The position numbers and the translations under genes were made by a program. The notes beneath the pieces were generated by a model. The model was not told the DNA's origin and ran no database searches. It saw only the letters and a list, made by a program, of their open reading frames with translations. Shown here in pieces: positions 4,259 through 28,586 of a stretch of 32,000 bases of DNA (the first letter of the stretch is position 1; each line of letters starts with the position of its first letter). The stretch spans positions 229,193 to 261,192 of the forward strand of contig NZ_PGUW01000024.1 in the NCBI RefSeq assembly GCF_002863565.1, read 5' to 3'. Origin of the DNA: Bacillus sp. V5-8f (GTDB lineage Bacteria > Bacillota > Bacilli > Bacillales > DSM-1321).

Positions 4259-4416
4259 AAAAGGAACAATGATTATCTCTCAAATGAAAAAGGGTTTCAA
4301 CCGCTCGTCTGCCAATCGACAAGTTCATAGATTCTACTTTATTGTTCATTTCTTGTGTTTAAAATTAGTATATTATTGAACTAGTATATTTCATAAATTA
4401 TGGTGGGGGTAATGGT

Positions 4417-5409
4417 TTGGTTTTAATCATCACAACAGGAATTGCTGTTGCTCTTGTTTCTTTTCTTGTACTACTCGTTCCAATCGGCCTGACGGGTGCT
4501 GGAAAAATGCTAGTCATAATTACGTGCACAATCGTAAGTTTAATTGGAATACTTGGCAGAAGCGTGTTTTCTTTATCGCAGCTCGCTTTATTTCAACTCG
4601 TTTTGGCTTTATTATTCACATACATTTTCTATAAAAGATTCCAATTGTTTCGTTTGGAAGAGGATACTGTTGATTTTGATTCCCAAGATAGGATGAAACC
4701 GTTTTATTCTCTTAAAGAACTTGAGGAAAAAGCAAAGTCTTCTACAACAATTGATGAATATTATTCCGTTCCAAAGAGGATAAAGTCAGATCCTTTGTAT
4801 GTGGAAGAATTAACGTCCACTATGTCTTCAATGGGCGATAATGAAACAGAAATTTATGAGGAAACAATGAATGAGCGCACCGGTATGGAAAAGAAAGACT
4901 ATCAAGATATGAATATTGGTGAAAAGCGAGAAAAAATGGTAGAAATACATAGTTCAAACCAAGATGCTTGTAATCTTAATCTGGAACATATCTATGAGAT
5001 CACAGATGTATTTGACATGGATAGCAGATTATCTGCATTAAACAAGCCGATTGACGCTGAGAACTTAGTAGAGCCAAACCCATATTATAGTGCGCATATA
5101 TTAGAGACAGCTAGTTCATTGGAAGATGGTGATTTAGATTTATTAATCGAGTCGAGGAGGATGGTTTCTCATAACATTGACGACTTCACAATCCTTGAGA
5201 GCTTTCAGGAAAATCAGAAGACGTTTTCATCAGCAGACGAAGCCAACGAACAACAAAATGAGGCCTTTCATGATACCGGAATGGATTTAAAGGATTTACA
5301 GTCCAATCTAACAAAAACACACAATAAATATTCGAATGAAGAAATAAACAGTATTTTTGAAGATTTAGAAGAACTTTATCTACGGAATAAAAGGAAAAAG
5401 AATGAGTAG
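4417..5409 (+). CDS. hypothetical membrane protein with a long acidic C-terminal region
   Basis: TTG start 7 nt after GGTGGGGG. The first ~75 aa form about three hydrophobic helices. The remaining ~250 aa are D/E-rich and low in complexity, with no domain I recognise. Confidence 0.55.
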   Translation: MVLIITTGIAVALVSFLVLLVPIGLTGAGKMLVIITCTIVSLIGILGRSVFSLSQLALFQLVLALLFTYIFYKRFQLFRLEEDTVDFDSQDRMKPFYSLKELEEKAKSSTTIDEYYSVPKRIKSDPLYVEELTSTMSSMGDNETEIYEETMNERTGMEKKDYQDMNIGEKREKMVEIHSSNQDACNLNLEHIYEITDVFDMDSRLSALNKPIDAENLVEPNPYYSAHILETASSLEDGDLDLLIESRRMVSHNIDDFTILESFQENQKTFSSADEANEQQNEAFHDTGMDLKDLQSNLTKTHNKYSNEEINSIFEDLEELYLRNKRKKNE

Positions 5410-5422
5410 GAGCACTCGATAA

Positions 5423-6757
5423 ATGAAGAATACAACTTCTTCCTATTTTAAATTCCTTCTTTTAATTTTAGCAGGAACGTTTTTTATCAGCCTTTTTTCT
5501 AAATTTGGAACCGAGGCCCAAAATGCCGTATTTCAATCTAATCAAAAGTTTGCTGACAAAACTTACATAGGTTCGGTAAATGTTGAAAATCTTACAAAAA
5601 AAGAGGCAAAAGAAAAAATAGAAAAAGCGGCTGCTGATTGGAGAAACAATGCAGATATAGCCTTCACGTTTGCCGATACAAAACTTAAGGTTCCTAACAA
5701 TCAAATTTCGTTTTTAATTGATGATTCAGTTTTTTCTGCAGCAAGCGGGATGGAAAATCCCCTTTTTGTTTCTGTTAACGAAAAGTTGATCGATGATCAA
5801 ATTAAAAAGCATACAAGCCAAACGTTGGTAACCAATATTGACATCAAGAAGTTGAAAAGGGAAATAAAGAGGCGAACCGGTACCTTGCCGAAAGAAAAGA
5901 TAGAGATTAGATTACTAGACTTTTTAAAAAAGGACTCACATTTAAAACAAGAAGTCCTTTCAAGTTCGATGATAAAAGTGGATGATCATGAGTACCTTGA
6001 TGCCTGGTTACAGGAGTCCAAGGAAATCAAAATCAAGGAAAATTCTAATTTCTCTTTTTTGGAATATTTAAGAAATGCTAAATTGGATTTTTCTGATGAG
6101 TTTCTGACATTGTCAGCTTCCTCTCTATATAAGGCAATATTAAATACGAATTTGCAAATCATAGAGAGGAATATAAGCAGGGAGCTTCCTGAAGGCATGG
6201 AACCTGGTTTTGAAGCAAAGATCAAACAGAATAGCATGGATCTGATTTTATATAATCCAAACGATTATGACCTGACTGTCAATTTTAGCTCTGATAAGAA
6301 AGGCTTTCTAAAAACAGATATTATTGGTTATAAAACGCCCACAACATATAACATTCGCCTGCAAAATAAAAAATACTTTAAACCAAAGCAAATCATTCAA
6401 TATGTTCCGGACATTACTCTTGTTAGTAAACCGGCCAATCATCCGGGTAAGCAAGGTGTCTCTGTCTCTATCTACCGGGAAATAACGGATTCAAATGGCG
6501 TAAACAAGGATTCTGTTTTTGTCTCTAACGATATTTACCTTCCGGTGAACGAAGTGGTTGTAAAGGAGATTCCTGCTTTGGCGGAACCACCGGATGCGGA
6601 ACCTGAGGATGCTGCCGCTACAAATGAAAATGGTGGAAATGCCATTGAAGATACCACTGGGACGAATGAGTCGGAAAAGTCACAAGCGGACGATATCGCT
6701 GATTCTAACGATAGGAGTGAAAACGAAAGTAATCTTTCTGAAAAATCCGGAGAATAA
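5423..6757 (+). CDS. VanW-like (YoaR-like) cell-wall-associated protein with an acidic tail
   Basis: N-terminal signal anchor (FKFLLLILAGTFFISLF). The block YIGSVNVENLTKKEAKEKIEKAA is typical of the region preceding VanW domains. The VanW-like core is divergent (NFSFLEY...SASSLYKAILNTNLQIIERNISRELPEGMEPGFEAKI...DLILYNPNDYDLTVNF). The last ~60 aa are D/E/S-rich. Confidence 0.55.
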   Translation: MKNTTSSYFKFLLLILAGTFFISLFSKFGTEAQNAVFQSNQKFADKTYIGSVNVENLTKKEAKEKIEKAAADWRNNADIAFTFADTKLKVPNNQISFLIDDSVFSAASGMENPLFVSVNEKLIDDQIKKHTSQTLVTNIDIKKLKREIKRRTGTLPKEKIEIRLLDFLKKDSHLKQEVLSSSMIKVDDHEYLDAWLQESKEIKIKENSNFSFLEYLRNAKLDFSDEFLTLSASSLYKAILNTNLQIIERNISRELPEGMEPGFEAKIKQNSMDLILYNPNDYDLTVNFSSDKKGFLKTDIIGYKTPTTYNIRLQNKKYFKPKQIIQYVPDITLVSKPANHPGKQGVSVSIYREITDSNGVNKDSVFVSNDIYLPVNEVVVKEIPALAEPPDAEPEDAAATNENGGNAIEDTTGTNESEKSQADDIADSNDRSENESNLSEKSGE

Positions 6758-6758
6758 A

Positions 6759-6798
6759 GCAGCAACAGGCTGACAATCAAATGTCAGCCTGTTGCTGC
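6759..6798. terminator. Hairpin between convergent genes (possible bidirectional terminator)
   Basis: Perfect 17-bp stem GCAGCAACAGGCTGACA (6759-6775) / TGTCAGCCTGTTGCTGC (6782-6798) with a 6-nt loop. It has no clean T-run on either side. Confidence 0.55.
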
Positions 6799-6800
6799 TA

Positions 6801-7745
6801 CTAATCTAAAGAGGTTGAACCGATAATCTCCCAGTAGGAATTACCATCTCCATTTGAATTCTTATTTAGTTCCCACACACCCTCACCTAAATGCTTACAG
6901 GAGGTTTCACTAGTTTTTTCCACGGTTAAAGGGAATAAATTTTCCGGCTTATGAATTTTTCCGTGAACACAGATCGACGCTCCATTTTTTATGCTGTTTC
7001 CTTGAAGCGAAACAGTTTCAAAAAGTGCATCACCGGCAATTTCAAGTCTTGATTCCTGGTTTAAAAATAAATCCCCACCTCTATAATAGAAATGGCCGTT
7101 TACTTTAAAAAGACCGTTGCTTGGCATATAGAGGCCTTGGTTAGCAACAATGTTTCCATTAATCACCAAATTTACAGTGGGGTTGATTCTAACTTCTGAT
7201 AGGAAATTAACATTTTTGTTATATGATGTATCGTCTAGATAATGGCTTTTATTCCAGTCTATTTGTTGATAAGAAGCACCTTTTGGATTTATATTTCCAA
7301 AGTCAAAACTCCCGGATCCATTCTTGCTAAGCGTAATCTTTTCGCTTTTCTCCATCCTATAGTCGCTTACAAATCCAATGCTACGATAAATAATCTCTAT
7401 TTTCTTATTCCCAATTTTTTTTATATTCGCCGTTTCGATTTTGTAATAATAAGTGGGATTTCTTGTAGACGGCGAATCCATATTTGGTAGTTCTTGATGC
7501 AAAAGCGCTATCGCTTCATCTGTATCAGATGGTAATGTGGGAACAATACTTTCGACAAGAGTCCTGTAATATATAGTGCCCATTTCAGTCAGGTTCGTTA
7601 ATTGAATCTTTTCCTCGGTTTTTCTATTCTGTACAGAGCTGTTTAAAACATTCGTTAGCAAAGTAACTGAGAAAACCCCTATTAGTGTGATGGTAAGTAG
7701 TACTATAATTAAGGTATATCCTTTTTCATTATTATTCCATTTCAT
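6801..7745 (-). CDS. PilX-like minor pilin / putative pilus-tip protein
   Basis: 314 aa. The N-terminus MKWNNNEKGYTLIIVLLTITLIGVFSVTLL is a prepilin-like hydrophobic helix without Glu5, as in PilX/ComGG-type minor pilins. RBS GGGAG lies 7 nt upstream. It is co-oriented with and 18 nt downstream of another pilin gene. Confidence 0.6.
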   Translation of the reverse strand: MKWNNNEKGYTLIIVLLTITLIGVFSVTLLTNVLNSSVQNRKTEEKIQLTNLTEMGTIYYRTLVESIVPTLPSDTDEAIALLHQELPNMDSPSTRNPTYYYKIETANIKKIGNKKIEIIYRSIGFVSDYRMEKSEKITLSKNGSGSFDFGNINPKGASYQQIDWNKSHYLDDTSYNKNVNFLSEVRINPTVNLVINGNIVANQGLYMPSNGLFKVNGHFYYRGGDLFLNQESRLEIAGDALFETVSLQGNSIKNGASICVHGKIHKPENLFPLTVEKTSETSCKHLGEGVWELNKNSNGDGNSYWEIIGSTSLD

Positions 7746-7763
7746 GTTTATGCTCCCAATGAA

Positions 7764-8246
7764 CTATTCATTGCTCCCTGCTTTCAAGTACCCATATACT
7801 TCCGTGATTTTTTTGGGGGGTTCCTCTGTTCCCTCAAACATTAAAATTTCCACCTTAACCTTAAATAGATTTAAGTTTCTCTCCTTAAATGACTGGCTAA
7901 CAGAAATGTCTGGGTAATAGCTTTTGTTATTTATTTCATAGGAGTAATAATTCGGATGGTCAGGGTCTTCTGGCAGTCCCAAAAATCGCTCTATACCTGT
8001 AAAAGATTGGTTTGTATTATGTACTAGATAATTAATGACAGACTCATTATTTGTAGTATTATAGAGGATTCTTTCCGCAATATTAACTGCCGAAAATTTA
8101 TCCTCCGTTTTAGTAGAAAAAGTGACCGAATTGGAGAAAACGGCAGAAAAAATTGTTATGACTATTCCTAAAATAGTAATCGAAACAAGGATCTCTATAA
8201 GAGTAAACCCCGTGTTCGACAGTCGTGATTTTGAATAATTCACCAA
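7764..8246 (-). CDS. prepilin-type N-terminal cleavage/methylation domain protein (minor pilin)
   Basis: Canonical class III signal: ...SNTG|FTLIEILVSITILGIVITIF. RBS AAGGTGA upstream. The TTG at 8246 or the GTG at 8243 could be the start. Confidence 0.8.
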   Translation of the reverse strand: MVNYSKSRLSNTGFTLIEILVSITILGIVITIFSAVFSNSVTFSTKTEDKFSAVNIAERILYNTTNNESVINYLVHNTNQSFTGIERFLGLPEDPDHPNYYSYEINNKSYYPDISVSQSFKERNLNLFKVKVEILMFEGTEEPPKKITEVYGYLKAGSNE

Positions 8247-8333
8247 ATTGTATCACCTTTTTAGCTTTTTATTCATTATAGTACATAATATAATTAGTCT
8301 AGGAAAAAAATTGAAGAAATTTGGGGAATAAGA

Positions 8334-9146
8334 ATGAAATGGAAGCGAATATGTGACGAAAAAGGACTAACCCTGATTGAACTGTTGGCAACTCTCACAA
8401 TTTCAAGTCTACTTATTGGCATTTCCTGGGGGATACTATCTGCTAGTTTTAATCAAAACAATAAAGCCCAATCCCATAATCTGTTACGGCAGGAAGCAAA
8501 TATAGCCATAACACAAATCAGGCAGCTTCATCATTTACAAAATTATTCGTTATGCTATGAAAATGATGAAATGATTTACCTAGACCTAAATAAATCCAGT
8601 CCATTAACCAGTGAGGGCTACAAATTTGCCAATATTTCATTTGAGAACGATCATAAGATTTTAACAAATACTAATTCATGTTTACATATTAATATCTCAA
8701 GTCCTCTAACAGTTGATTTTACTTTGATAGACAATCATAGTAATAGATTTGATCTGCAAACTACTATTGATAACATTGGAAACTACGGTAATACACCAAG
8801 CCCCGGGAAAGGAGAGAGCGAAACCCCCGATCCAGTTGAACAGCCAAACCAGCCGCCCATTCCTGGTGATGGTGATGAAGAACGTGAAGATGAAGACAAT
8901 GATAGAGATCGTGAAAATGAAGAGAATGATAGAGATCGTGATAATGAAGATAACCAGGAAGACCGTGATGATAGAGGCGATAAAGACGAACGTGAAGATG
9001 AAGATGAAACCGAAGGTAGAGACGATGATGGAGAGTATAAAGATAAAGATGATGATAAACAAAATGAACACGATCACGGTTGGGAACGGAATGATGAAGA
9101 TGGAATAGATTTTTTCCAAGATGGTGATAGGGAAGATGATGAGTAA
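8334..9146 (+). CDS. prepilin-type minor pilin with a hyper-acidic C-terminal tail
   Basis: DEKG|LTLIELLATLTISSLLIGISWGIL prepilin signal, a small globular part, then a Pro-rich linker and a D/E/R/N tail of about 115 aa. It is divergent from the two minus-strand pilin genes and leads into pilB. Confidence 0.75.
   Translation: MKWKRICDEKGLTLIELLATLTISSLLIGISWGILSASFNQNNKAQSHNLLRQEANIAITQIRQLHHLQNYSLCYENDEMIYLDLNKSSPLTSEGYKFANISFENDHKILTNTNSCLHINISSPLTVDFTLIDNHSNRFDLQTTIDNIGNYGNTPSPGKGESETPDPVEQPNQPPIPGDGDEEREDEDNDRDRENEENDRDRDNEDNQEDRDDRGDKDEREDEDETEGRDDDGEYKDKDDDKQNEHDHGWERNDEDGIDFFQDGDREDDE
8898..8951 (+). repeat. 27-bp in-frame tandem duplication inside the acidic tail
   Basis: AATGATAGAGATCGTGAAAATGAAGAG (8898-8924) / AATGATAGAGATCGTGATAATGAAGAT (8925-8951), encoding NDRDRENEE / NDRDRDNED. 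Confidence 0.85.
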
Positions 9147-9202
9147 GATGATTAAAGCTCAAGATTCGAAGATAAATATTATGAAGTACACAGGTGAAAA
9201 CT

Positions 9203-10849
9203 ATGTCGATTAAACGAAAACTCCTTGGAGATTTACTTGTTGATGCAGGAATTATTTCGGAAAGCCAGCTTCAGGATTCTTTAAGGCTGAAAAAAGATGG
9301 GCAAAAGCTTGGCGACGCACTCCTCGAGAGGGGATTAATCAACGAACGGCAGCTGGTAAAAGTGTTAGAATTCCAACTTGGAATCCCCCAGATCAACTTA
9401 TACAGGTATCCTGTGGATACGAATTTATTGGACTTAATTCCTAAAGAGTTTGCCTTTCGCAATGTGTTAATGCCGATTAAAAGAGATGGCAATCACCTTG
9501 TGGTTGCCATGTATGATCCGATGGATTATATCGCTCTTGATGATATGCGTTTATCAACAGGGTTGCAAATTTCTCCTGTTATTGCGACAAAGGACGAAAT
9601 TTTGTCTGCTTTACATAGACACTATAGTATGGCTGAAACGTTTGAAGAAATTGAAGAAGATTCGTTGAATGATGCTGATCTGGATAGTGAAGAAGCACCT
9701 GCTGTAAGGCTTGTGAACCAGATACTGGCGATGGGGATACAGTTGAAGGCCAGTGATATTCACATTGATCCACAAGAGGCGAGAATCCTTGTTCGCTATC
9801 GAGTGGATGGAATTTTGCGGACCGAGCGGATCCTTTCCAAGAATATATATAGCTTGCTCATCGCCCGGATCAAGATTATGGCAAACATGAATATTACTGA
9901 ATCCCGGCTTCCACAGGATGGACGGATAAAGCTTGATATAAACTCGATACCGGTAGATCTACGAATCTCATTATTGCCGACCGTGTATGGAGAGAAAGCA
10001 GTTATTCGTATCCTGGATTTATCAAACGTCTTGTTACATCTCACACAGCTTGGATTTAATAAAGTGAATCTGCAAACATTTTTCGGGTTGATTGAAAGGC
10101 CATCAGGAATGGTTTTAATTACAGGACCCACCGGATCAGGAAAGACATCCACACTCTATGGCGCACTAAATCATTTAAATAAGGAACAAGTGAACATCAT
10201 AACGGTGGAAGACCCTGTGGAATATCAACTGAAAGGAATAAATCAAGTTCAGGTGAACCCCTCCATCGGTTTAACATTTGCCAGCGGGCTACGCTCAATC
10301 CTAAGACAAGATCCCAACATTGTAATGATTGGCGAAATCCGTGATAAGGAAACGGCAGAAATCGCTGTACGCGCATCCCTCACAGGGCATTTCGTGTTTA
10401 GCACTCTTCACACAAACAGCGCACTGACAACGATTCCAAGATTGCTAGATATGGAGGTTGAGCCCTATTTGGTCGTTTCTGCTTTATCAGGAGTGGTGGC
10501 ACAAAGATTGATAAGAAAAGTATGTAAAGACTGCATGGTTGAATATACACCATCAGAAATGGAGAAAAACCTATTTCAAAAGCGTGGTATAAAGGTCGAT
10601 ATACTTTACAGAGGATCTGGATGCCCAAGCTGCCAAAATACCGGTTACAGAGGCAGAATGGCCATACACGAAGTATTAAATATAGATGAAAAAATCCAAT
10701 CGATGATGATGAATAATAAGTCGATTCAGGAAATAAAGCAATATACTATGCGAAATGGCATGATTTTTTTGCTTGATGATGGTTTGTTAAAGGCTAAAAA
10801 CGGCATGACCACAGTTGAAGAAGTTTTAAGGGTAGCGATACAGGATTAG
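9203..10849 (+). CDS. pilB: type IV pilus assembly (extension) ATPase PilB, GspE family
   Basis: Walker A GPTGSGKTS and the tetracysteine motif CKDC...CPSC. The N-terminal GspII/MshEN-like region has LGDLLVDAGIISESQL and KLGDALLERGLINERQL. ATG 9203 lies 6 nt after AGGTG; the ORF is open from GTG 9194. Confidence 0.9.
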   Translation: MSIKRKLLGDLLVDAGIISESQLQDSLRLKKDGQKLGDALLERGLINERQLVKVLEFQLGIPQINLYRYPVDTNLLDLIPKEFAFRNVLMPIKRDGNHLVVAMYDPMDYIALDDMRLSTGLQISPVIATKDEILSALHRHYSMAETFEEIEEDSLNDADLDSEEAPAVRLVNQILAMGIQLKASDIHIDPQEARILVRYRVDGILRTERILSKNIYSLLIARIKIMANMNITESRLPQDGRIKLDINSIPVDLRISLLPTVYGEKAVIRILDLSNVLLHLTQLGFNKVNLQTFFGLIERPSGMVLITGPTGSGKTSTLYGALNHLNKEQVNIITVEDPVEYQLKGINQVQVNPSIGLTFASGLRSILRQDPNIVMIGEIRDKETAEIAVRASLTGHFVFSTLHTNSALTTIPRLLDMEVEPYLVVSALSGVVAQRLIRKVCKDCMVEYTPSEMEKNLFQKRGIKVDILYRGSGCPSCQNTGYRGRMAIHEVLNIDEKIQSMMMNNKSIQEIKQYTMRNGMIFLLDDGLLKAKNGMTTVEEVLRVAIQD

Positions 10850-10860
10850 GAGGAACTCTT

Positions 10861-11901
10861 TTGAAGGATAGACTCGATTATATTTTGACAGCGGCATTTG
10901 AATTGGGAACTTCCGATATCCATTTAACTGTTGGTGTGCCGCCGATAATGAGATTACATGGTGAGTTAAAACATTATGGCAAGGAAAGTTTAAAGCCGGA
11001 AGATACCGAAGCAATGGCAAGGGCCATTATTCCGGACAACTTATGGCAGACATTTAAAGAAAAAGGGGAACTGGACTTTTCTTACGGAATACCAAGTGTC
11101 TCACGGTTCAGAGTAAATGCTTACCACCAAAGATCGTGTGTTAGTCTTGCAATAAGGGTTGTACCGACAGAAATCCCCACTTTGGAGCGGCTTAATCTGC
11201 CGGACATTCTAAAACACATTTCCGAGAAACCACAAGGCCTGGTCTTGGTCACAGGCCCCACCGGGAGCGGGAAATCTACAACACTAGCAGCCATGCTCGA
11301 TTATATTAATAAAAACATGAAACGGCATATCATTACCTTGGAAGATCCGATTGAATATCTGCATAAACACAGGTTAAGCGTGATAGATCAACGTGAAGTC
11401 GGGTTTGATACGCAAAATTTTGCAAACGGTTTACGGGCATGCCTTCGCCAGGATCCGGATATCATCCTGGTTGGCGAAATGCGTGATTTAGAAACGATTT
11501 CAACGGCAATCACAGCCGCTGAAACCGGGCATCTCGTGTTGGGTACCCTGCATACAACCGATGCGCCTTCCACCATTGATCGGATTATTGATGTATTTCC
11601 GGCGAATCAGCAGCCGCAGGTACGGGTCCAGCTCGCTTCCGTATTAACTTCAATTATTTCACAGCGGCTTTTTCCCACCACCGCTAAAAATGGCCGCGCG
11701 GCAGCAATTGAAATTATGATAAACAATTCAGCAATCCGGAATTTAATACGAAATGAAAAAATTCATCAGATACATAGTGTGATGCAGACAAGTAAGTCAA
11801 TGGGCATGCAGACGTTAGAAATGTCTATCAGGGATTTGGTAGATTCAAATATAATCGACCAGCAGGTTGCAGCATCATATCTTCAGGAAGGTGTTAGGTA
11901 A
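10861..11901 (+). CDS. pilT: type IV pilus retraction ATPase PilT
   Basis: 346 aa with Walker A GPTGSGKST and the PilT signature AIRNLIRNEKIHQI. TTG start lies 7 nt after AGGAGG. Confidence 0.9.
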   Translation: MKDRLDYILTAAFELGTSDIHLTVGVPPIMRLHGELKHYGKESLKPEDTEAMARAIIPDNLWQTFKEKGELDFSYGIPSVSRFRVNAYHQRSCVSLAIRVVPTEIPTLERLNLPDILKHISEKPQGLVLVTGPTGSGKSTTLAAMLDYINKNMKRHIITLEDPIEYLHKHRLSVIDQREVGFDTQNFANGLRACLRQDPDIILVGEMRDLETISTAITAAETGHLVLGTLHTTDAPSTIDRIIDVFPANQQPQVRVQLASVLTSIISQRLFPTTAKNGRAAAIEIMINNSAIRNLIRNEKIHQIHSVMQTSKSMGMQTLEMSIRDLVDSNIIDQQVAASYLQEGVR

Positions 11902-13109
11902 TGCCTGTTTTTCAATACCAGGGAAGGAATAAGACAGGTAAAAGAAAAAGTGGTAAAGTTATGGCTGAAAACCGCAAAGAAGCAGTACTGAGACTACGGG
12001 AATCAGGTGTTTCAGTCATATCCATCAATGAACTCAACGGAATTTTATATAAAGAAATTTCATTGGGTGGAAAAAAGGTTAAAAATAAAGACTTCATCAT
12101 CTATCTTCGCCAATTTTCCACACTATTGAAAGCTGGGGTTCCTATTGTGGAGGCCACGAAAATATTGGCACAGCAAACCTCCAGCAAGGTGCTCAAAAAA
12201 ACTTTGGCAGCAGTAGTGCAGAATCTTGAAGAAGGAAAACCTTACTCTGATGCAGCGGAAGAACAAAACGGTGCTTTCCCGCCGTTATTCACTAATATGG
12301 TACGTGCCGGTGAAGCAGGCGGAAACCTGGATGAAATTTTGGAACGAATGGCCGTCTACTTTGAAAAACAATATCGAACAAGACAAAAAGTAAAGTCTGC
12401 GATGATGTATCCTGCCACGGTGGGCATCATTTCTATCGTTATCGTAATTTTTCTGCTCTCGACCGTTGTGCCGGCATTTGCCGGCATGTTCGCCACTTTT
12501 GGAGGCGAGCTGCCATTAATCACTAGAATCGTAATGAGTCTTGGAAGCTTTTTCGGTTCCTATTGGTGGGTATTCCTATTATTAGCGATAGCTGTGTACA
12601 TCGGCGTTTATCTGCTAATATCAAACCGCAAAACCAAATATTTTTTAGACTATGTACTTTTAAAGTTACCATTGTTCGGCAGCCTGCTTCAAAAGGCTCA
12701 AATTGCACGGATGACCAGAACCCTCAGTTCCCTTTTTTCTAGTTCTGTGCCAATTTTACAGTCAATTATGATTGTAGAAAGGATATTAGGGAACGAAGTG
12801 CTGTCGAAAGTCTTAAGGGAAGCAAGAACTTCCATTGAAAAAGGCCAGTCAATGGCAGTTCCCATGGAAATTCACTGGGCGTTTCCTCCCATGGTCACCC
12901 AAATGATCGCAATCGGGGAAAAATCAGGGACGTTGGACTCTATGCTTGATAGAGTGGCGGACTTTTATGAAATGGAGGTAGACAATTCAACGGACCAAAT
13001 AAAATCTTTGATAGAGCCAATGATGATTGTCTTCCTTGCTTTTGTTGTCGGTGGTATAGTGGGAGCCATTGCTGTACCGATGTTTAGCATATTTGAAACA
13101 ATTAACTAA
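11901..13109 (+). CDS. pilC: type IV pilus platform protein PilC, GspF family
   Basis: 402 aa with duplicated GspF domains, three TM segments and an N-terminus (MPVFQYQGRNKTGKRKSG) typical of PilC. Its ATG overlaps the pilT stop by 1 nt. Confidence 0.9.
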   Translation: MPVFQYQGRNKTGKRKSGKVMAENRKEAVLRLRESGVSVISINELNGILYKEISLGGKKVKNKDFIIYLRQFSTLLKAGVPIVEATKILAQQTSSKVLKKTLAAVVQNLEEGKPYSDAAEEQNGAFPPLFTNMVRAGEAGGNLDEILERMAVYFEKQYRTRQKVKSAMMYPATVGIISIVIVIFLLSTVVPAFAGMFATFGGELPLITRIVMSLGSFFGSYWWVFLLLAIAVYIGVYLLISNRKTKYFLDYVLLKLPLFGSLLQKAQIARMTRTLSSLFSSSVPILQSIMIVERILGNEVLSKVLREARTSIEKGQSMAVPMEIHWAFPPMVTQMIAIGEKSGTLDSMLDRVADFYEMEVDNSTDQIKSLIEPMMIVFLAFVVGGIVGAIAVPMFSIFETIN

Positions 13110-13180
13110 TAGTAAAATATTCACATAAATTACATGGTAAAATTAACATTTCTCTATTACAATAGCAACATAATATACAT

Positions 13181-13254
13181 AATTGGAAACGATGATAGGT
13201 CATTTGTATCTGGGCACTTGAATGACCAGGAGTTAGTAGTGCAACCCGCCAATT
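13181..13254 (+). promoter_or_regulatory. c-di-GMP-II (class II) riboswitch aptamer
   Basis: AATTGGAAACGATGATAGGTCATTTGTATCTGGGCACTTGAATGACCAGGAGTTAGTAGTGCAACCCGCCAATT. It contains the conserved blocks GGAAAC.ATGAT, TGGGCACTTGA and GAGTTAGTAGTGCAACC, as I recall them from the crystallised C. acetobutylicum aptamer. Supporting helices: AATTGG/CCAATT (13181-86/13249-54), GGTCATT/AATGACC (13198-204/13221-27), GGGCAC/GTGC..CCC (13212-17/13239-47). Confidence 0.75.
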
Positions 13255-13303
13255 TTTATGTTTAAGTCAGCCTAGACTTTAAATGTGAAATTTGGCGTTT
13301 TTT
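13247..13303 (+). terminator. Riboswitch expression platform: intrinsic terminator
   Basis: The outer stem CGCCAATTTT (13247-56) / AAATTTGGCG (13288-97) has one mismatch. Inner pairings include AAGTC (13264-68) / GACTT (13275-79). TTTTTT follows at 13298-13303. The 5' arm reuses the 3' strand of aptamer P1. Confidence 0.7.
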
Positions 13304-13399
13304 ATGTCAACTGGTTTCGATCCTAGAATACTAGACGGTTAGAAAAGCACTTATTTTGTTTGTTAAAGTGACACATAAAAGACGCGAGGAGAGAATTTG

Positions 13400-13891
13400 A
13401 TGAAACGTTTTAAAGAAATTCTTAAGAATCAAAGGGGATTGACCCTGGTTGAGCTGCTTGCAGTAATAGTTATTTTGGGCATTATTGCAGCGATTGCTGT
13501 TCCTAGTATTGGGAAAATTATTGATAATAGCAAGAAGGATGCGCATATTGCGAATGCGGAGCAATTGGTTGCAGCTGCACGATTAGCTCAAGCAGATCAA
13601 CTTAATCAGTCCACTGTGTTTGAAGGCAGTCAAGCTACCGTTAATAATGCTTCAATATCACCTAAAAACGGTTATAACTTCGAACAATTAGTTGAAGGGG
13701 GATATCTAGAAAGTTTAATCGATCCTGACTCTTCAAATAAGGCAGCTTATACGGATGGCTATGTCGAAGTTGTAAAGGATACAAACAATAGGATTACATA
13801 TAAAGTTTTTTTAGACGGAGCGAAATATGATATAGGGTCAAACTCTAATCCTGTTCTATATACGGAAATTACAAGAGAAGATGTAAAATAA
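13400..13891 (+). CDS. pilA: major type IV pilin
   Basis: MKRFKEILKNQRG|LTLVELLAVIVILGIIAAIAVPSIG is a class III signal with Glu5. ATG 13400 lies 8 nt after AGGAG; the ORF track begins at TTG 13397. It sits between its own leader and a terminator. Confidence 0.85.
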   Translation: MKRFKEILKNQRGLTLVELLAVIVILGIIAAIAVPSIGKIIDNSKKDAHIANAEQLVAAARLAQADQLNQSTVFEGSQATVNNASISPKNGYNFEQLVEGGYLESLIDPDSSNKAAYTDGYVEVVKDTNNRITYKVFLDGAKYDIGSNSNPVLYTEITREDVK

Positions 13892-13918
13892 TAGAAAATA
13901 ACATCAACGACAATCAAT

Positions 13919-13945
13919 ACTCCTTACTGAAGGAGTTCTTTTTTT
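13919..13945 (+). terminator. Rho-independent terminator of pilA
   Basis: ACTCCTT (13919-25) / AAGGAGT (13930-36), 4-nt loop, then TCTTTTTTT. Confidence 0.7.
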
Positions 13946-13952
13946 ATCTATA

Positions 13953-13980
13953 TTCAACCTCCCTACAAGTCTTGTATACT
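13953..13980 (+). promoter_or_regulatory. candidate sigma-A promoter for pilD-pilMNO
   Basis: TTCAAC (13953-58), a 16-nt spacer, then TATACT (13975-80), about 30 nt upstream of the pilD ATG. This is a pattern match only. Confidence 0.3.
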
Positions 13981-14012
13981 ATGTTTAATAGAACGAAAAG
14001 GAACCTGCTGAT

Positions 14013-14768
14013 ATGGTTTATATATATACATACCTGTTTATTCTCGGAGCTGTTCTTGGCTCGTTTTATAATGTGGTGGGATTACGGGTGCCGGAAAATG
14101 TGTCGATAGTCCGCCCGCGTTCCCACTGCGCCACTTGTCACAGGACTTTAGGTGCGGTGGATTTGATTCCTGTTCTTTCATATTTGTTGCTTCGGGGGAA
14201 ATCCAGGTGCTGTGGCAATAAAATATCAATGATTTACCCGATAGTAGAATTAGTGACAGGACTACTGTTTTTACATGCGTTCTACTGGTTCGGGCTGACG
14301 GGTGAATTGGCAGTAGCGTTAACATTTATTTCGCTTTTGGTCATTATTTTTGTTTCAGATATTGTCTATATGATTATCCCTGATAAGGTGCTTTTGTTTT
14401 TTATCCCTGTCATCCTGGTCGAGAGGATGTTGGTTCCATTGAATCCGTGGTGGGATATGTTTGCCGGCGCTTTCATTGGCTTTGGGCTTCTTTATCTAAT
14501 TGCTATTTTAAGCAAGGGAGGCATGGGTGGCGGTGACATCAAGCTGTTTTTTGTGATTGGCCTGGTATTAGGGTTAAAGCTGACCATCCTGGCGTTTTTT
14601 ATTTCTACGTTGATTGGTGCTTTGTACGGCATACTGGGTATGGGTCTAGGAAAACTGCGGAGAAGCCAGCCAATTCCGTTTGGGCCGTTTATTGCTATAG
14701 GGGCACTTGTGTCCTACTTTTACGGTAATTTCATCATGATTTTCTATTTTGATGTGTTTAATTTTTAG
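14013..14768 (+). CDS. pilD: prepilin peptidase / N-methyltransferase (A24 family; ortholog position of B. subtilis comC)
   Basis: 251 aa, polytopic. The N-terminal Cys pairs are CATCHRTL...CCGNKIS. The two Asp-containing active-site regions include GMGGGDIKLF. It sits between folC and spoIIB, as comC does in B. subtilis. Confidence 0.9.
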   Translation: MVYIYTYLFILGAVLGSFYNVVGLRVPENVSIVRPRSHCATCHRTLGAVDLIPVLSYLLLRGKSRCCGNKISMIYPIVELVTGLLFLHAFYWFGLTGELAVALTFISLLVIIFVSDIVYMIIPDKVLLFFIPVILVERMLVPLNPWWDMFAGAFIGFGLLYLIAILSKGGMGGGDIKLFFVIGLVLGLKLTILAFFISTLIGALYGILGMGLGKLRRSQPIPFGPFIAIGALVSYFYGNFIMIFYFDVFNF

Positions 14769-14781
14769 GTGGTGCAATTGA

Positions 14782-15750
14782 ATGTTTAAAAGCAGTAAAC
14801 GCCAGTTACACATTGTCATGAAAGATCGATATATTCACTTTTTAGAAAGTGGGAAAGACCGTTCATTTCTTGCTTATGGGCAAAGGTGCCTGCCCAAGGG
14901 TGTGGTTGAAGATGGGCAAATAAAAGAACATGAAACTCTCACAATGATTCTTGAAGAAATAGTGGATCAGCATAAGCTGAAAGGATGTAAAATTTCTTTT
15001 TGTGTCCCTGATTCGTTTGTCATCATAAGAAAGGTGGAGGTTCCACTAGAACTATTGGATGAAGAAATTACCGGTTATTTGTATATGGAACTTGGCGAAA
15101 GCATTCATTTGCCTTTTGAAGACCCAATTATTGAGGGGGTACCGTTAAGGGAAAACGGTGAGCGGAAGGAAGTTCTTCTAATTGCTTCAAAGGAATCAAT
15201 AGTGAAAGAATTTTCTAGCCTATTTAAAGAAGTATCCCTAAAACCGGTTGTTGCAGATTTGTCGTTATTATCTCTATATCGAACTTACTATCATTTAAAT
15301 GTGGCACAGGAAGACGAACACTTGCTAATGATTCAAATTGGGCTGAATTCGATGCTTCTATCCGTCTTCCACAAATATAAGCCAATCATACTTCATCAAT
15401 TTAGTCTTTCATTTACAGATCAAGAGTATGAAACGGAAAAAAACAGAAGCGGTTCGGAGTATTTTACCTGGAAAGGTGAGTTTGATCGCTTAATGGGTGA
15501 AGCCAGTGATATTACGACAGAAATTGAGCGTTTTATAAACTATTATAATTTCAACATCACGAAGGGAAAGCATCAAGTTACCAAGATTTTATTATCAGGT
15601 GACCATCCTTGCATGGAATTATTTCATGAACGCATTGATGCTGCGTTTCAGATCGACATTCAACCTTTGCTCAAGCCTTTGTTCCAAACCAAAAAAGGAA
15701 TCAACATACCTGCTGTGTACGCAGAATGTATTGGACTAGCATTAAAGTAG
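14782..15750 (+). CDS. pilM: type IV pilus assembly protein PilM (actin-like ATPase fold)
   Basis: 322 aa. Both the length and the position immediately before PilN/PilO-like genes fit PilM. The N-terminal pattern (LPKGVVEDGQIKEHETL) is characteristic of PilM. Confidence 0.8.
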   Translation: MFKSSKRQLHIVMKDRYIHFLESGKDRSFLAYGQRCLPKGVVEDGQIKEHETLTMILEEIVDQHKLKGCKISFCVPDSFVIIRKVEVPLELLDEEITGYLYMELGESIHLPFEDPIIEGVPLRENGERKEVLLIASKESIVKEFSSLFKEVSLKPVVADLSLLSLYRTYYHLNVAQEDEHLLMIQIGLNSMLLSVFHKYKPIILHQFSLSFTDQEYETEKNRSGSEYFTWKGEFDRLMGEASDITTEIERFINYYNFNITKGKHQVTKILLSGDHPCMELFHERIDAAFQIDIQPLLKPLFQTKKGINIPAVYAECIGLALK

Positions 15751-15759
15751 GTGCCAAAA

Positions 15760-16356
15760 ATGCATGTAGATATCAACTTATTGCCTGAAAAAGAAAAAAG
15801 AAAATTACCATTGATATTAATCATCTCGCTTTTATTAGTTGTCCTTTTTGCTTTTGGCGCTTACGCATGGAGTATCTACGAACAGAAGATACAAGAAAAA
15901 GATAATTTGGAAAAACATCTAGCTTATTCAAAAAAACTAAGAGAAATACAGCAAACTAAATCAGCGGAAAATAACAGCTCCCATGTAGTAGATGAGCTTG
16001 AAACAGCTATTAAGTGGGCTGAAGAAAGTTCTGTTTCTACTTTTTTATTAGTTAGAAGCATTACTTCTATGCTCCCGGAAAGAGGGTTTATTTTAACGTT
16101 TTCTTTTACAGACAACGGTGAAGTGCAGCTTTCTGTCCAGTTTGATTCCTCCAGGCAGGCAGCTTATTTTTTAAAAAGCCTTTCAGATTCTAATTTGATC
16201 AATCAAGCTACACTGCTGGACATTAAAACAGAGACACTTGAGGAAACGGAAGCTAAAACTGAGAATGTCCTGCCCAGGTATATCGCCCAGTATAGCCTGA
16301 TTATTGATAAAAAAGCGTTAAAAAAAGGGGAACTTGAAGGGAAGGTGACACAATGA
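15760..16356 (+). CDS. pilN: type IV pilus assembly protein PilN
   Basis: MHVDINLLPEKEKRK followed by a single TM, which is the hallmark PilN N-terminus. ATG 15760 lies 6 nt after AGGTG; the ORF is open from GTG 15751. Confidence 0.75.
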   Translation: MHVDINLLPEKEKRKLPLILIISLLLVVLFAFGAYAWSIYEQKIQEKDNLEKHLAYSKKLREIQQTKSAENNSSHVVDELETAIKWAEESSVSTFLLVRSITSMLPERGFILTFSFTDNGEVQLSVQFDSSRQAAYFLKSLSDSNLINQATLLDIKTETLEETEAKTENVLPRYIAQYSLIIDKKALKKGELEGKVTQ

Positions 16357-17381
16357 TGCCTACCCGAAAATTAACGATTATATTTGTGTTATCTTTGTGT
16401 TTTCTTGTGGCAGTTGGCGGAGGGTACTTTTACATGTATAATATAAAGCCGCTTAATGAGAACATTGAAACGCTGCAAACTTCTATTGTTAATGAAGAAG
16501 AACTAATAAATCAATCATCAAGTGCCACAGATTCTGGTAGCGAGGATATAGTTAAGAAATCTGCGGAACTTCAAAAAAGATTGCCCGTAAGCTCATTGGT
16601 TGATCAGTTCCTTTTGCATTTGGAATCAGCGGAAGCCGCCTCTGGAAGCTTGATCAGAAGTATTTCTTTTAGTGAAAACGATGGATCTAAGTCAGGTACG
16701 GAAGGAGAAACAGGAGATAATCCTGCATCCAAGTCCAGCTCTATGGAAAATACTAGAACTCTAAGTGACAGCACGAAAACAGGTGCAATATACGATAATA
16801 CAGAAGCAATTACTGATGCAAAACTGCCTCCTGGAATCAAAAAAGTGACTGCTACAATGGTTGTCGAAGCTTCGGATTATTTTCAATTAGAGGCATTTAT
16901 AAAGGCGGTTGAAGAACTCCCTAGGATAACCAAGGTGGAAAGTATTGCGTTTTCAGGCAATAGGGAATTGAGACAGGTGTCAGAACCACCTGATAATCTC
17001 CTCTACAATATGACAGTCTCTACTTTTTACTATCCTAGGCTTGATGACTTGAAAAAGCAGCTCCCTAAATATGACGTTCCGGAACCAAGTAAAAAATTGA
17101 ATCCATTTTATCATTCAGAGGCCTCCATTCCATCGCTGGAAGATCAACAAGACAATGCGGCTGTTAATAGTAAAGAAGAAAGCCGGATCGTTGAGAAAAA
17201 CAATAAAAAATATAAAGTGTATATATATGAGGTTATTCCAGGCGATACACTCTTTAAGCTATCTGTAGAATATTACAACAACCGTAAAGGGGAAACTTTG
17301 ATTAAGACGTGGAATAATTTGGACTCGCTTCAATCTGGAATGCAAATTGAAATACCTGTACCTGTCGACGGCAAATTTTGA
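16353..17381 (+). CDS. pilO: PilO-like pilus assembly protein fused to a C-terminal LysM domain
   Basis: Single N-terminal TM then a coiled coil (PLNENIETLQTSIVNEEELI), in PilO order after PilM/N. The C-terminal YKVYIYEVIPGDTLFKLSVEYYNNRKGETLIKTWNNLDSLQSGMQIEIPV matches the LysM pattern. The start overlaps the pilN stop (ATGATG). Confidence 0.7.
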   Translation: MMPTRKLTIIFVLSLCFLVAVGGGYFYMYNIKPLNENIETLQTSIVNEEELINQSSSATDSGSEDIVKKSAELQKRLPVSSLVDQFLLHLESAEAASGSLIRSISFSENDGSKSGTEGETGDNPASKSSSMENTRTLSDSTKTGAIYDNTEAITDAKLPPGIKKVTATMVVEASDYFQLEAFIKAVEELPRITKVESIAFSGNRELRQVSEPPDNLLYNMTVSTFYYPRLDDLKKQLPKYDVPEPSKKLNPFYHSEASIPSLEDQQDNAAVNSKEESRIVEKNNKKYKVYIYEVIPGDTLFKLSVEYYNNRKGETLIKTWNNLDSLQSGMQIEIPVPVDGKF

Positions 17382-17393
17382 CGAAACCTATTG

Positions 17394-17427
17394 ATAACAG
17401 GACGACAAAAGTCTTGTTATTTTTTTT
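17394..17427 (+). terminator. Rho-independent terminator ending the pilD-pilMNO unit
   Basis: ATAACAGGAC (17394-403) / GTCTTGTTAT (17411-20) forms a 10-bp stem with one G-U pair, a 7-nt loop and TTTTTTT at 17421-27. Confidence 0.85.
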
Positions 17428-17475
17428 GGCCTGTATGATAGGATGGGGAAAATGATGGTGAAGGGAGTCTGTGAG

Positions 17476-18489
17476 ATGGACAAGTCCGGTAACCGGAAGA
17501 AGATCACAATCAAAATCAACGGACAGGAGAAGTCGTTTGAAGAACTGGAGAGCGACAGGCCGCTTCCGGAGAACCAAATCGCTGCGGCAGCAGAAAAGCC
17601 GGAAGAAGAAAGCTTTGATTGGGTTCTGCCTGATACAAAAGACGAATATCATATTGAGGAATTTAATGCAGCTGCTTTCAACAAGAAAGGGAAAGCAGAT
17701 ATATATACGTTTGGCGGGAAGCAGAAAAGCAAAGCTGAAACAAAGATCCATGCATTAAAAATGCCTATTATTGCAATACTTTGTGCAATCCTGATAGGGA
17801 CATGCCTTGGTTTCATCATACTAAAGACCATCACAGCAAGTGAAGGAAATACCGTGCCGAGACAGACTGCTCCCATATCGGCTGCACCAGCTAATAAACC
17901 CTCGGCTCCTGAAGAGAAAAAGGAAAAATCCATCCCTTCCCCCCTTACGGCATTTTTAGTACAGGGGGGTGTGTTTAGTACAGAAGTTAGTGCCAAACAG
18001 CTGCAGTTAAGCATCAAGCAAAAAGGGATTCCAGCGGAAATTTTTCAACTAAACGGTAAGTTTTATATTTTCTCAGGAACGGCAGGAAGTTTGGAGGACA
18101 GTAAAGCGTTAGCATCCTTTTATAAACAAAAACAGCTAGCTTTTTTTTGGAAGGAAGTATCATTTTCCCCTTCGATTAATGAAGGGCAAAATGAAACAAT
18201 AAAGGAACTTTCTTCCCTTTATAGTTTCTTATCTCAGACCACCTCAGGACTTTTGAACAGTCCGCAATTCCGCGTCGACCAAAAAAAGCTCCAGGAACAA
18301 TTGTCGGCTGTTGATGAAAAAACAAAGGGAAAATCATCCCGAAATATTTCAACCATGAAAAAACAGCTAACGGCAGCGGCAGAATTGCTTAGCGATGGCC
18401 AGACTTCAAAAGATCAAGAAAAACTACTTTCAGCCCAGGAGCAGCTGCTGGCTTTTTTGAAAAGTTATCAGATGATAAAAAGTGAGTAA
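17476..18489 (+). CDS. spoIIB: SpoIIB-like sporulation septum protein (SPOR-type domain)
   Basis: It occupies the B. subtilis spoIIB slot between comC and maf. It has a charged N-terminus and one TM (MPIIAILCAILIGTCLGFIIL). A SPOR-like segment follows (FLVQGGVFSTEVSAKQLQLSIKQKGIPAEIFQLNGKFYIFSGTAGSLEDSKALASFYKQ). ATG 17476 lies 8 nt after AAGGGAG; the ORF is open from 17443. Confidence 0.6.
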   Translation: MDKSGNRKKITIKINGQEKSFEELESDRPLPENQIAAAAEKPEEESFDWVLPDTKDEYHIEEFNAAAFNKKGKADIYTFGGKQKSKAETKIHALKMPIIAILCAILIGTCLGFIILKTITASEGNTVPRQTAPISAAPANKPSAPEEKKEKSIPSPLTAFLVQGGVFSTEVSAKQLQLSIKQKGIPAEIFQLNGKFYIFSGTAGSLEDSKALASFYKQKQLAFFWKEVSFSPSINEGQNETIKELSSLYSFLSQTTSGLLNSPQFRVDQKKLQEQLSAVDEKTKGKSSRNISTMKKQLTAAAELLSDGQTSKDQEKLLSAQEQLLAFLKSYQMIKSE

Positions 18490-18780
18490 ACTGTCAGTTG
18501 CTGTCCTATTTTCCGGGAAATAACCTCGACCATCGTCGGATAAAGGAATATGAATGAGCATGTAATGAGGCATTTTTGCTTATCATAACTATGTGGAATT
18601 CATACTCCTTTTTAATTGTGGAAAAGATGTTTTTAGATAGAAAGTATGGATTTTTTCATTCTGTAAGCCCTATCAGGGTTACCCATTCGTTTTCTTTATG
18701 AATGATTGTTAGTTGTCCTATAATCTGTTACGATAGAAATGGTATCTCCCAAACTGCTTTTAGTAAGGTAAGGTGAACGT

Positions 18781-19428
18781 ATGAAATCTTTGATATTAGC
18801 TTCTTCATCACCACGGCGTAAAGAACTTCTCCAATTTCTCCAGATTCCTTTTGAAACAATCCATACGAATACGGATGAAAGTATTGATCCACAGCTGGAT
18901 GCCGAAAAGGCGGTTAAAGAACTGGCTGAGCGAAAGGCTATGGCAGCTGCCTTAACATATCCTGGCGATTGCGTGATTGGTGCGGATACAGTTGTAGCTG
19001 TTGAAGGCAGGATTTTAGGAAAACCTGTCGACAGGGAAGATGCGAAAAAAATGCTGCGGATTCTATCAGGAAGGACACATCATGTATACACTGGTGTTGC
19101 GATTATCCAGGGTGAAGGGCGAAAAGTTTTTGCTCAAAAGACGGAAGTAACCTTTTGGGAGCTGTCTGAGGAAGAGATTGAAGCCTACCTCGACACAGGC
19201 GAACCATTTGACAAGGCGGGCAGCTATGGAATCCAGGGATACGGGTCCCTGCTTGTGAAAGGGATTTCAGGCGATTACTTTTCGGTGGTAGGTCTTCCGG
19301 TATCCAGGCTGGCGCGTGAATTAAAAGCCTTCAAAAATTCAAATGTTGTAAGAGAGTATGCCATCTTTCCTAAGGTCATTCTTCCCATAATTAAAGTAAG
19401 AGAGGAAGGATGCAACTATGAGCAGTAA
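18781..19428 (+). CDS. maf: Maf-family nucleoside triphosphate pyrophosphatase (septum formation protein Maf)
   Basis: LILASSSPRRKELL...IGADTVV...DKAGSYGIQG...GDYFSVVGLP closely tracks B. subtilis Maf. It is about 25 aa longer at the C-terminus and overlaps radC by 11 nt. Confidence 0.9.
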   Translation: MKSLILASSSPRRKELLQFLQIPFETIHTNTDESIDPQLDAEKAVKELAERKAMAAALTYPGDCVIGADTVVAVEGRILGKPVDREDAKKMLRILSGRTHHVYTGVAIIQGEGRKVFAQKTEVTFWELSEEEIEAYLDTGEPFDKAGSYGIQGYGSLLVKGISGDYFSVVGLPVSRLARELKAFKNSNVVREYAIFPKVILPIIKVREEGCNYEQ

Positions 19429-28469: not shown

Positions 28470-28586
28470 ACTGTTATGTTTGTAGCATCCGTGCTACAAC
28501 CGCGCAGATCAGGCTTTAAAGATTTTGCTTTAAGGGCAAGGGCGCCTGTGATTGGCGAGTCTTAGTTATTATGAGGAGGTGCAGGG
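28470..28586 (+). promoter_or_regulatory. structured 5' leader of rplU (L21-leader-type ribosomal protein leader)
   Basis: The roughly 115-nt UTR has hairpins GTAGCA-TCCG-TGCTAC (28492-28507) and CTTTAAAG...CTTTAAGG, followed by RBS GAGGAGG. Firmicutes carry a conserved L21 leader in this position. I could not verify the match base by base. Confidence 0.45.

Follow-up and report, generated by a model that had tools for sequence, protein, structure and literature searches.

The closest described relative of the element examined here is Cdi-2-4 (Cdi2_4) of Clostridioides difficile, a class II riboswitch whose ligand is cyclic di-GMP (c-di-GMP) and that lies upstream of pilA1, and at which an intrinsic terminator stops transcription when c-di-GMP is absent and is passed when c-di-GMP is present (PMC6366702). 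All four class II switches of C. difficile are ON switches, and some of the read-through continues past pilA1 into the downstream pilB operon (PMC6366702). Bacillus thuringiensis possesses another c-di-GMP ON switch, Bc2, which allows read-through into the surface-adhesion gene cap (PMC6366702; PMC4933901). We have analyzed a stretch of 32,000 nucleotides (nt) from Bacillus sp. V5-8f (contig NZ_PGUW01000024.1, positions 229,193 to 261,192; hereafter ‘the window’), for which an earlier note had proposed a class II c-di-GMP riboswitch with an overlapping terminator in the spacer between pilC and pilA of a type IV pilus (T4P) gene cluster. That note had cited C. difficile pilA1 as precedent, and the logic published for pilA1 is indeed the same. 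The window element is an additional member of the Rfam family RF01786, a kind of switch that is already known and acts by a known mechanism, and its sequence makes it probable that it serves as a c-di-GMP-responsive transcriptional ON switch for pilA.

The comparison with these systems brings out both likeness and difference. As in Cdi-2-4, a class II aptamer stands directly upstream of what is probably the major pilin gene, on the same strand, with a terminator that excludes the bound aptamer. However, the window has pilB, pilT and pilC on the 5' side of its switch, and the placement of the switch ahead of the pilB assembly genes, by which machinery and pilin alike would be gated, is not shared; this is a difference in wiring and not in mechanism. 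The window element also has a putative promoter of its own, before pilA-pilD-pilMNO, and a C at model position 72 instead of the usual G; its host belongs to the Bacillaceae rather than the clostridia. Bc2 is comparable as a c-di-GMP ON switch with read-through into a surface-adhesion gene, but it belongs to class I (GEMM-I), has an unrelated fold, and serves a collagen adhesin, not a pilin. Lastly, the crystallized aptamer of Clostridium acetobutylicum (PDB 3Q3Z), together with the RF01786 consensus, shares with the window the same helices, the pseudoknot as predicted from its pairing, and the core GA..C..UGA, UGGGCAC.U, GAG..AGU.GUGCAACC, whereas the linker after CAACC reads CG in the window and was given as GA for the crystallized RNA in the earlier note.

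The Rfam c-di-GMP-II model matched the plus strand of the window at 13176-13259 with 73.4 bits against a gathering threshold of 53.5 (E = 6.1e-15), thus bearing out the assignment to class II. The match was of full length (model positions 1-84 of 84), RF01786 was the top scorer within clan CL00127 at this location, and it was the single riboswitch match of the Rfam scan in the entire 32 kb. The 74-nt string quoted by the earlier note was found verbatim at 13181-13254, and its 287-nt pilC-pilA spacer was also correct, extending from the pilC stop at 13109 to a TTG at 13397, with the ATG at 13400 as the likelier start. All highly conserved consensus positions were matched in the window except model position 72 (C13247). 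When the pair list of the model was mapped to the window, P1, P3 and the pseudoknot were present as had been described, and all six pairs were possible in the pseudoknot between GGGCAC of the P3 loop and the 3' GUGC..CC. The supposed full pairing of the CCC with GGG did not hold: two of its C's take part, and the third, C13247, belongs to the linker; in 93 of 95 surveyed aptamers, this linker consists of G and a purine. Overall, on the sequence evidence the stretch at 13176-13259 is almost certainly a class II c-di-GMP aptamer.

A PilC-based scan with one genome per species retrieved 31 loci, which allowed the arrangement to be followed among relatives. RF01786 was found 30-100 nt 3' of pilC in 16 of 16 Bacillaceae loci, scoring 58.6-81.1 bits, and a prepilin gene followed the aptamer in every one of the 16. 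These loci belong to Peribacillus (5), ‘Paenibacillus sp. FJAT-29882’, Cytobacillus (2), Heyndrickxia, Terribacillus, Virgibacillus (5), Gracilibacillus, and one Bacillaceae metagenome-assembled genome (MAG). Outside the named Bacillaceae genera, namely in Verrucomicrobia, Methylococcaceae, Acidobacteria and other or unclassified MAGs, RF01786 was found in none of 15 T4P loci. When the 16 orthologous aptamers were aligned, 86.8% of cells fell in standard pairs, and both sides had changed in 19 of the 28 pairs (P3, 8/8; P1, 9/11; P2, 2/3). None of 500 shuffles reached the observed covariation score, and controls in which the partner was slid were 29-42% paired. P1, P2 and P3 thus all show strong covariation. 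The pseudoknot columns were paired in 99% of cells, but being almost invariant, they offered no covariation to test. In addition, 23 core columns of the aptamer alignment were invariant across six genera. The arrangement is not particular to this genome; public assemblies contain it in no fewer than six genera of Bacillaceae, in agreement with the suggestion that the circuit extends beyond the Clostridia.

The proposed terminator was examined by folding. The hairpin at 13247-13297 (51 nt) had a free energy of -21.5 kcal/mol (z = -5.47), was equaled in stability by none of 200 dinucleotide shuffles, and was followed by the predicted T6 at 13298-13303, confirming both parts of the original description. 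Its base helix, CGCCAA/UUGGCG, joins 13247-13252 to 13292-13297 by six pairs and takes the first four nt of the P1 3' strand, the other nt of which fall further along the 5' arm; the terminator thus has 13247-13254 in common with the linker and the P1 3' strand. Since the P1 3' strand (13249-13254) lies inside the terminator 5' arm, the aptamer and the terminator are mutually exclusive, as had been argued. A generic terminator scan of the window did not list the terminator at 13247-13303, probably because its long bulged stem falls outside the scan rules. The hairpin was also considered as a terminator of the minus strand, which is unlikely; there is no T-run after the hairpin on that strand, and the sole minus-strand open reading frame (ORF) there overlaps pilA.

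Transcripts were then folded at increasing length. At 13259, the aptamer with P1 closed was the minimum-energy structure, and at 13290 it coexisted with the upper part of the hairpin; only upon addition of 13292-13297 was P1 displaced. When P1 was enforced, the remaining hairpin stopped ~6 nt before the U-tract. A hairpin ending at that distance from its U-tract should not terminate. The following sequence of events is proposed. Transcription would begin at the element's own promoter (-10 box at 13158-13163) between pilC and pilA, and the nascent RNA would fold into the class II aptamer at 13181-13254. With c-di-GMP bound, P1 and the pseudoknot would occupy 13245-13254, the six-pair terminator base would be blocked, and only the upper hairpin would be left, allowing the polymerase to continue into pilA. 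Without ligand, the 3' arm UUGGCG would displace P1, the full hairpin would abut the U6 tract, and transcription would end. The predicted polarity is ON because the P1 3' strand is itself a part of the terminator 5' arm, with no intermediate antiterminator helix. The ON reading given in the earlier note is thus supported by the overlap of the two structures and by the comparative data; the identity of the ligand, the direction of the response and the promoter are what we infer.

Comparison of the orthologous leaders (denoted by locus, L001 onward) added to this picture. Ten leaders were of the terminator type, namely those of the window, L001, L003-L009 and L014, each with a hairpin of 50-60 nt followed by U5-7. 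The hairpins start 0-4 nt past the CC of the pseudoknot, and their stabilities range from -16.8 to -27.4 kcal/mol, with z from -4 to -7.7. It is to be noted that these values derive from folds performed locus by locus and not from column covariation, since the upper stems could not be aligned between genera and the MAFFT alignment was poor in that area. In L014, the linker has changed from CCCGCC to CCACCC, and the 3' arm has changed to match, from GGCG to GGUGG. A shape that is kept while its sequence diverges, with a constant overlap with the aptamer 3' strand, offers the strongest support for the antitermination model. Two of these leaders, L003 and L004 (5408-5650; Peribacillus loiseleuriae and FJAT-29882), contain an extra G+C-rich segment of ~170 nt between the terminator and pilA, which is absent from the other loci.

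Several observations weigh against the antitermination model or limit its reach. Seven orthologous leaders (L002, L010-L013, L016, L019) have no terminator, which restricts the terminator mechanism to one clade. Virgibacillus, Terribacillus, Gracilibacillus and Peribacillus asahii are the sources of the terminator-free leaders. Several of these allow base pairing between the C-rich 3' strand of the aptamer and the Shine-Dalgarno sequence: in L002 (5373-5480), CCCC pairs with its GGGG, and in L011 (5302-5360) and L012 (5303-5370), CCG.CC pairs with GG.CGG. This suggests translational ON control in the terminator-free lineages, which we offer only as a lead. A further difficulty is energetic, as the computed terminator state lies 15.7 kcal/mol below the P1-closed one, the energies of the pseudoknot and of the ligand being omitted from this figure. 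Because of this gap, the switch would have to work kinetically or through very tight binding. The published affinity of class II is 200 pM to 2 nM (PMC7583470), and the binding energy that corresponds to such dissociation constants is of the same order as the gap between the two computed states; thus, a kinetic, co-transcriptional switch is plausible in the model. The promoter is also a weak point, in that the -35 element of the window is weak, a generic promoter scan favors other candidates, and other candidates outrank the conserved box in the window, L012 and L014. A literature search found no report of class II riboswitches at pilus loci of Bacillales or Bacillaceae, although the original class II papers were outside its reach. 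Finally, C13247 replaces a near-invariant G adjacent to the binding pocket, and affinity or selectivity could differ as a result.

It is mainly this last nucleotide that keeps the identity of the ligand short of certainty. To place it in context, metagenome contigs were scanned for the exact core GGGCACTT...AGTNGTGCAACC, and 95 aptamers were confirmed with a covariance model derived from the Bacillaceae set; other non-G matches to the pattern were mostly not aptamers. In these 95 class II aptamers, model position 72, the nucleotide after CAACC, was G in 93, C in one and U in one, and the lone C aptamer (L044) also had a terminator that overlaps P1. Our own mapping would equate position 72 with G73 of 3Q3Z, which a review places among the ligand-contacting nucleotides (PMC7288161); on the role of G73, this contact list was all that the literature search yielded. 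Among the Bacillaceae leaders, the window and L001-L009 carry C at position 72, L014 carries A, and the remaining six (L010-L013, L016 and L019) carry G. All ten terminator-type leaders have C or A at this position, and L002 has C and no terminator.

These data bear on the first of three alternatives to a c-di-GMP-responsive transcriptional switch, in which the fold and the circuit are the same, and the clade-specific G-to-C change at 13247 cuts affinity or shifts selectivity to another cyclic or linear dinucleotide, creating a sub-class. The near-invariance of G in the survey, the presence of the equivalent G73 on the contact list, and the fixation of C in ten leaders with A in an eleventh would all fit such a change. 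Nonetheless, all other highly conserved core nucleotides agree with the Rfam consensus, RF01786 remains the best model in its clan, and the Bacillaceae orthologues with the canonical G govern the same gene. There is also a simpler cause, since the terminator stem begins with the pair C13247-G13297, and this pairing may explain the change. We know of no validated specificity variant of class II. An altered response to the ligand is, on balance, improbable.

It is still less probable that the aptamer is a decaying relic, in which case the hairpin and U-tract would be a constitutive attenuator or the terminator of pilBTC, and pilA would be independent of any ligand. The much greater stability of the terminator state in silico speaks for a relic, as do the conserved motif and possible extra signals between the terminator and pilA, but a relic would not have retained the 23 core columns that are invariant, nor the compensatory changes seen in 19 of 28 pairs over six genera. 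Moreover, the aptamer always lies between the conserved -10 box and the terminator, and the terminator always overlaps the aptamer 3' strand despite the drift of its sequence. A switch that acts mainly on pilA translation or mRNA stability, or one of OFF polarity, appears just as remote for the window. The seven terminator-free leaders, the short spacers that let the aptamer 3' strand meet the Shine-Dalgarno sequence, and the statement in a review that c-di-GMP-II riboswitches, when bound to their ligand, turn on translation (PMC7583470) speak for it. In the window, however, the predicted folds leave the Shine-Dalgarno sequence, 83 nt past the U-tract, unpaired with the aptamer, the overlap of P1 and terminator without an antiterminator helix yields ON polarity, and the alternative platforms of the relatives also predict ON. 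The transcriptional ON switch thus remains the preferred reading.

A broader and rather unlikely proposal joins some of these threads: the pilA leaders of Peribacillus, Cytobacillus and Heyndrickxia might constitute a distinct class II sub-class, in which C at position 72 retunes affinity or selectivity, combined with a swap of platform between termination and the Shine-Dalgarno sequestration of Virgibacillus and others. If true, they would provide a natural series on how expression platforms evolve while aptamer and target gene stay constant. In themselves, the rare G-to-C change by the pocket and the variety of platforms for one gene offer leads that are modest yet concrete.

The features of the riboswitch and of the surrounding pilus cluster are collected in Table 1.

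Table 1. Coordinates of the riboswitch, its expression platform and the pilus genes in the window
Feature	Position	Strand	Basis
Class II c-di-GMP (c-di-GMP-II) aptamer	13176-13259	+	Rfam RF01786, pair list, covariation
Aptamer P1	13181-13186 with 13249-13254, plus A13179-U13256	+	Pair list mapped to window
Aptamer P2	13188-13190 with 13232-13234	+	Pair list mapped to window
Aptamer P3	13198-13204 with 13221-13227	+	Pair list mapped to window
Aptamer pseudoknot	13212-13217 with 13239-13242 and 13245-13246	+	Pair list mapped to window
Uncommon C at model position 72 of RF01786	13247	+	95-aptamer survey, 3Q3Z contact list
Intrinsic terminator, long bulged hairpin (13247-13297) and U6 (13298-13303)	13247-13303	+	Folding, shuffles, relatives
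Putative sigma-A-type promoter of the riboswitch-pilA unit	13134-13163	+	Conserved columns, inferred
pilA	Shine-Dalgarno GAGGAGAG 13386-13393; coding sequence 13400-13891 (163 residues)	+	Translation, Pfam, TIGR02532
Terminator-like hairpin (13919-13936) and U-rich tail, 3' of pilA	13919-13946	+	Terminator scan
pilB	9194-10849	+	Pfam T2SSE and MshEN; TIGR02538
pilT	10861-11901	+	NCBIfam TIGR01420
pilC	11901-13109	+	Pfam T2SSF
pilD, prepilin peptidase	14013-14768	+	Pfam Peptidase_A24
pilM	14782-15750	+	Pfam PilM_2
pilN-like ORF	15751-16356	+	Position only
pilO-LysM	16353-17381	+	Pfam PilO, LysM

The putative promoter consists of the weak -35 element (ATGGTA/TGGTAA, 13134-13140), a spacer of 17-18 nt, and a -10 box of TACAAT, with a predicted dedicated transcription start at ~13170. 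The -10 box belongs to the 70-100 nt that separate pilC from the aptamer, and across 11 aligned loci its T-A-x-A-x-T columns showed little or no variation. A TATAAT-like box with a match of 4-6 out of 6, and mostly of 5-6, was located upstream of P1 in all 17 leaders, at a distance of 13-29 nt (48 nt in L013), and a TTGnnn element usually lay 17-18 nt above it. The top promoters of the generic scan (13093-13121, 13120-13149 and 13156-13183) were discarded, as none is the positionally conserved box; the start site of the last would, moreover, land within the aptamer.

The product of pilA has the N-terminus MKRFKEILKNQRG|LTLVELL, a type IV prepilin cleavage motif (G|LTLVE), a Pfam N_methyl domain (2.4e-08) and a TIGR02532 domain, in accord with the type IV pilin gene that had been placed downstream of the switch. 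Among solved chains, the Streptococcus sanguinis pilin PilE1 (8pfb, E = 1.6e-07, residues 15-132) comes closest, and from its position and size, PilA is probably the major pilin. Two short sequence blocks lie between the terminator and the pilA Shine-Dalgarno sequence: a motif (A)GAC(T)ACATAAAA, seen in several genera (at 13370-13381 of the window and in L003-L005, L007 and L008), and a CCTAG..TA(A/C)TAGAC block (13322-13336 of the window) common to Cytobacillus. Possible roles for them are those of a further promoter, a processing site or a site at which a regulator binds.

The riboswitch sits inside the cluster, with pilB-pilT-pilC on its 5' side and pilA followed by pilD-pilMNO on its 3' side. 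The hairpin downstream of pilA probably limits read-through into pilD-pilMNO. By this arrangement, the switch would gate pilA and perhaps, past that hairpin, pilD-pilMNO as well, with pilBTC being expressed separately. Just upstream of pilB, two divergent prepilin-like genes with N_methyl domains, at 7764-8246 (minus strand, 160 residues) and 8334-9146 (plus strand, 270 residues), are probably minor pilins outside the control of the riboswitch.

A second input of c-di-GMP may be encoded in the same cluster. Residues 11-61 of PilB (nt 9224-9376) matched the curated c-di-GMP-binding motif model NF053729 (c-di-GMP_motif; NCBIfam, MshE-related) with 52.7 bits against a cutoff of 38. In the 24-residue motifs of PilB, the leading arginine is displaced or replaced (RKLLG, QKLG) and is not in its canonical place. 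In other bacteria, c-di-GMP promotes T4P assembly at the protein level through MshEN ATPases of the MshE/PilB type, and the PilB ATPase of C. difficile likewise has an MshEN domain (PMC9765702). Such ATPases differ from the element described here in that the receptor is a protein, the effect is post-translational, and no part of the RNA is involved; binding by the PilB of the window is a prediction. Because of this motif, piliation is probably controlled by c-di-GMP at two levels, namely pilin supply (through transcription) and the assembly ATPase PilB.

The genomic neighborhood conforms to the Bacillaceae backbone that the earlier note had recognized, with the synteny (valS-folC...rplU) of spore-forming members of that family. 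The gene order in the window is valS, two RimK-like genes, a folC-like gene, the pilus cluster, maf, radC, mreBCD and minCD, and beyond minCD there are M23 and M50 peptidases at the spoIVFA/B position, an RNase G-like gene, an L21 leader and rplU. The best PilC matches, at 74% identity, were those of Peribacillus saganii and P. alkalitolerans. The pilus cluster is thus flanked by the folC-like gene and maf-radC-mreBCD (2942-19428 of the window). In Bacillus subtilis, the folC/maf-radC location presumably holds only comC, a prepilin peptidase gene; if so, comC may be a remnant of such a cluster, with pilD of the window in the matching place. The L21 ribosomal-protein leader (RF00559) at 28488-28572, upstream of rplU, scored 54.9 bits against a threshold of 36 and is ordinary.

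Taken alone, the window element represents one more instance of a known riboswitch class with a known mechanism. Its significance lies in the evidence, at the sequence level, that the circuit of c-di-GMP, class II riboswitch and major pilin is not confined to the Clostridia. Experimental characterization of this circuit has so far come from C. difficile, whereas here it appears as a conserved feature of T4P loci in six or more spore-forming genera of Bacillaceae, a group whose pili and c-di-GMP signaling have received little attention. The locus further predicts control of piliation by c-di-GMP at two levels, in a family that offers tractable model organisms. Automatic annotation with Rfam models has probably been applied to the public genomes of these species, and the matches may therefore already sit in databases. 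As for the published distribution of the class, the class II motif is not mentioned in Weinberg 2010, and the text of McCown 2017 contained no usable distribution.

The metagenome sample places the pilin circuit among the other uses of class II. Of 111 pattern matches that had 300 nt or more of sequence downstream, a crude motif test placed only 2 ahead of a prepilin gene; these sequences suggest that pilin control is a minority use of class II, yet it is consistent in the Bacillaceae pilus loci. The two aptamers are those of L074 and L144, and the pilin N-terminus of L144 is very close to that of the window. Many of the class II aptamers in soil and sediment loci (L032-L151) have a G+C content of 58-67%, and the class is thus common well outside the low-GC Firmicutes. 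Paired class II aptamers, ~50-70 nt apart on the same strand, were observed in L108 (6540-6620 and 6690-6773) and L054 (4394-4477 and 4528-4611), and a single metagenome contig, L038, contained four class II matches.

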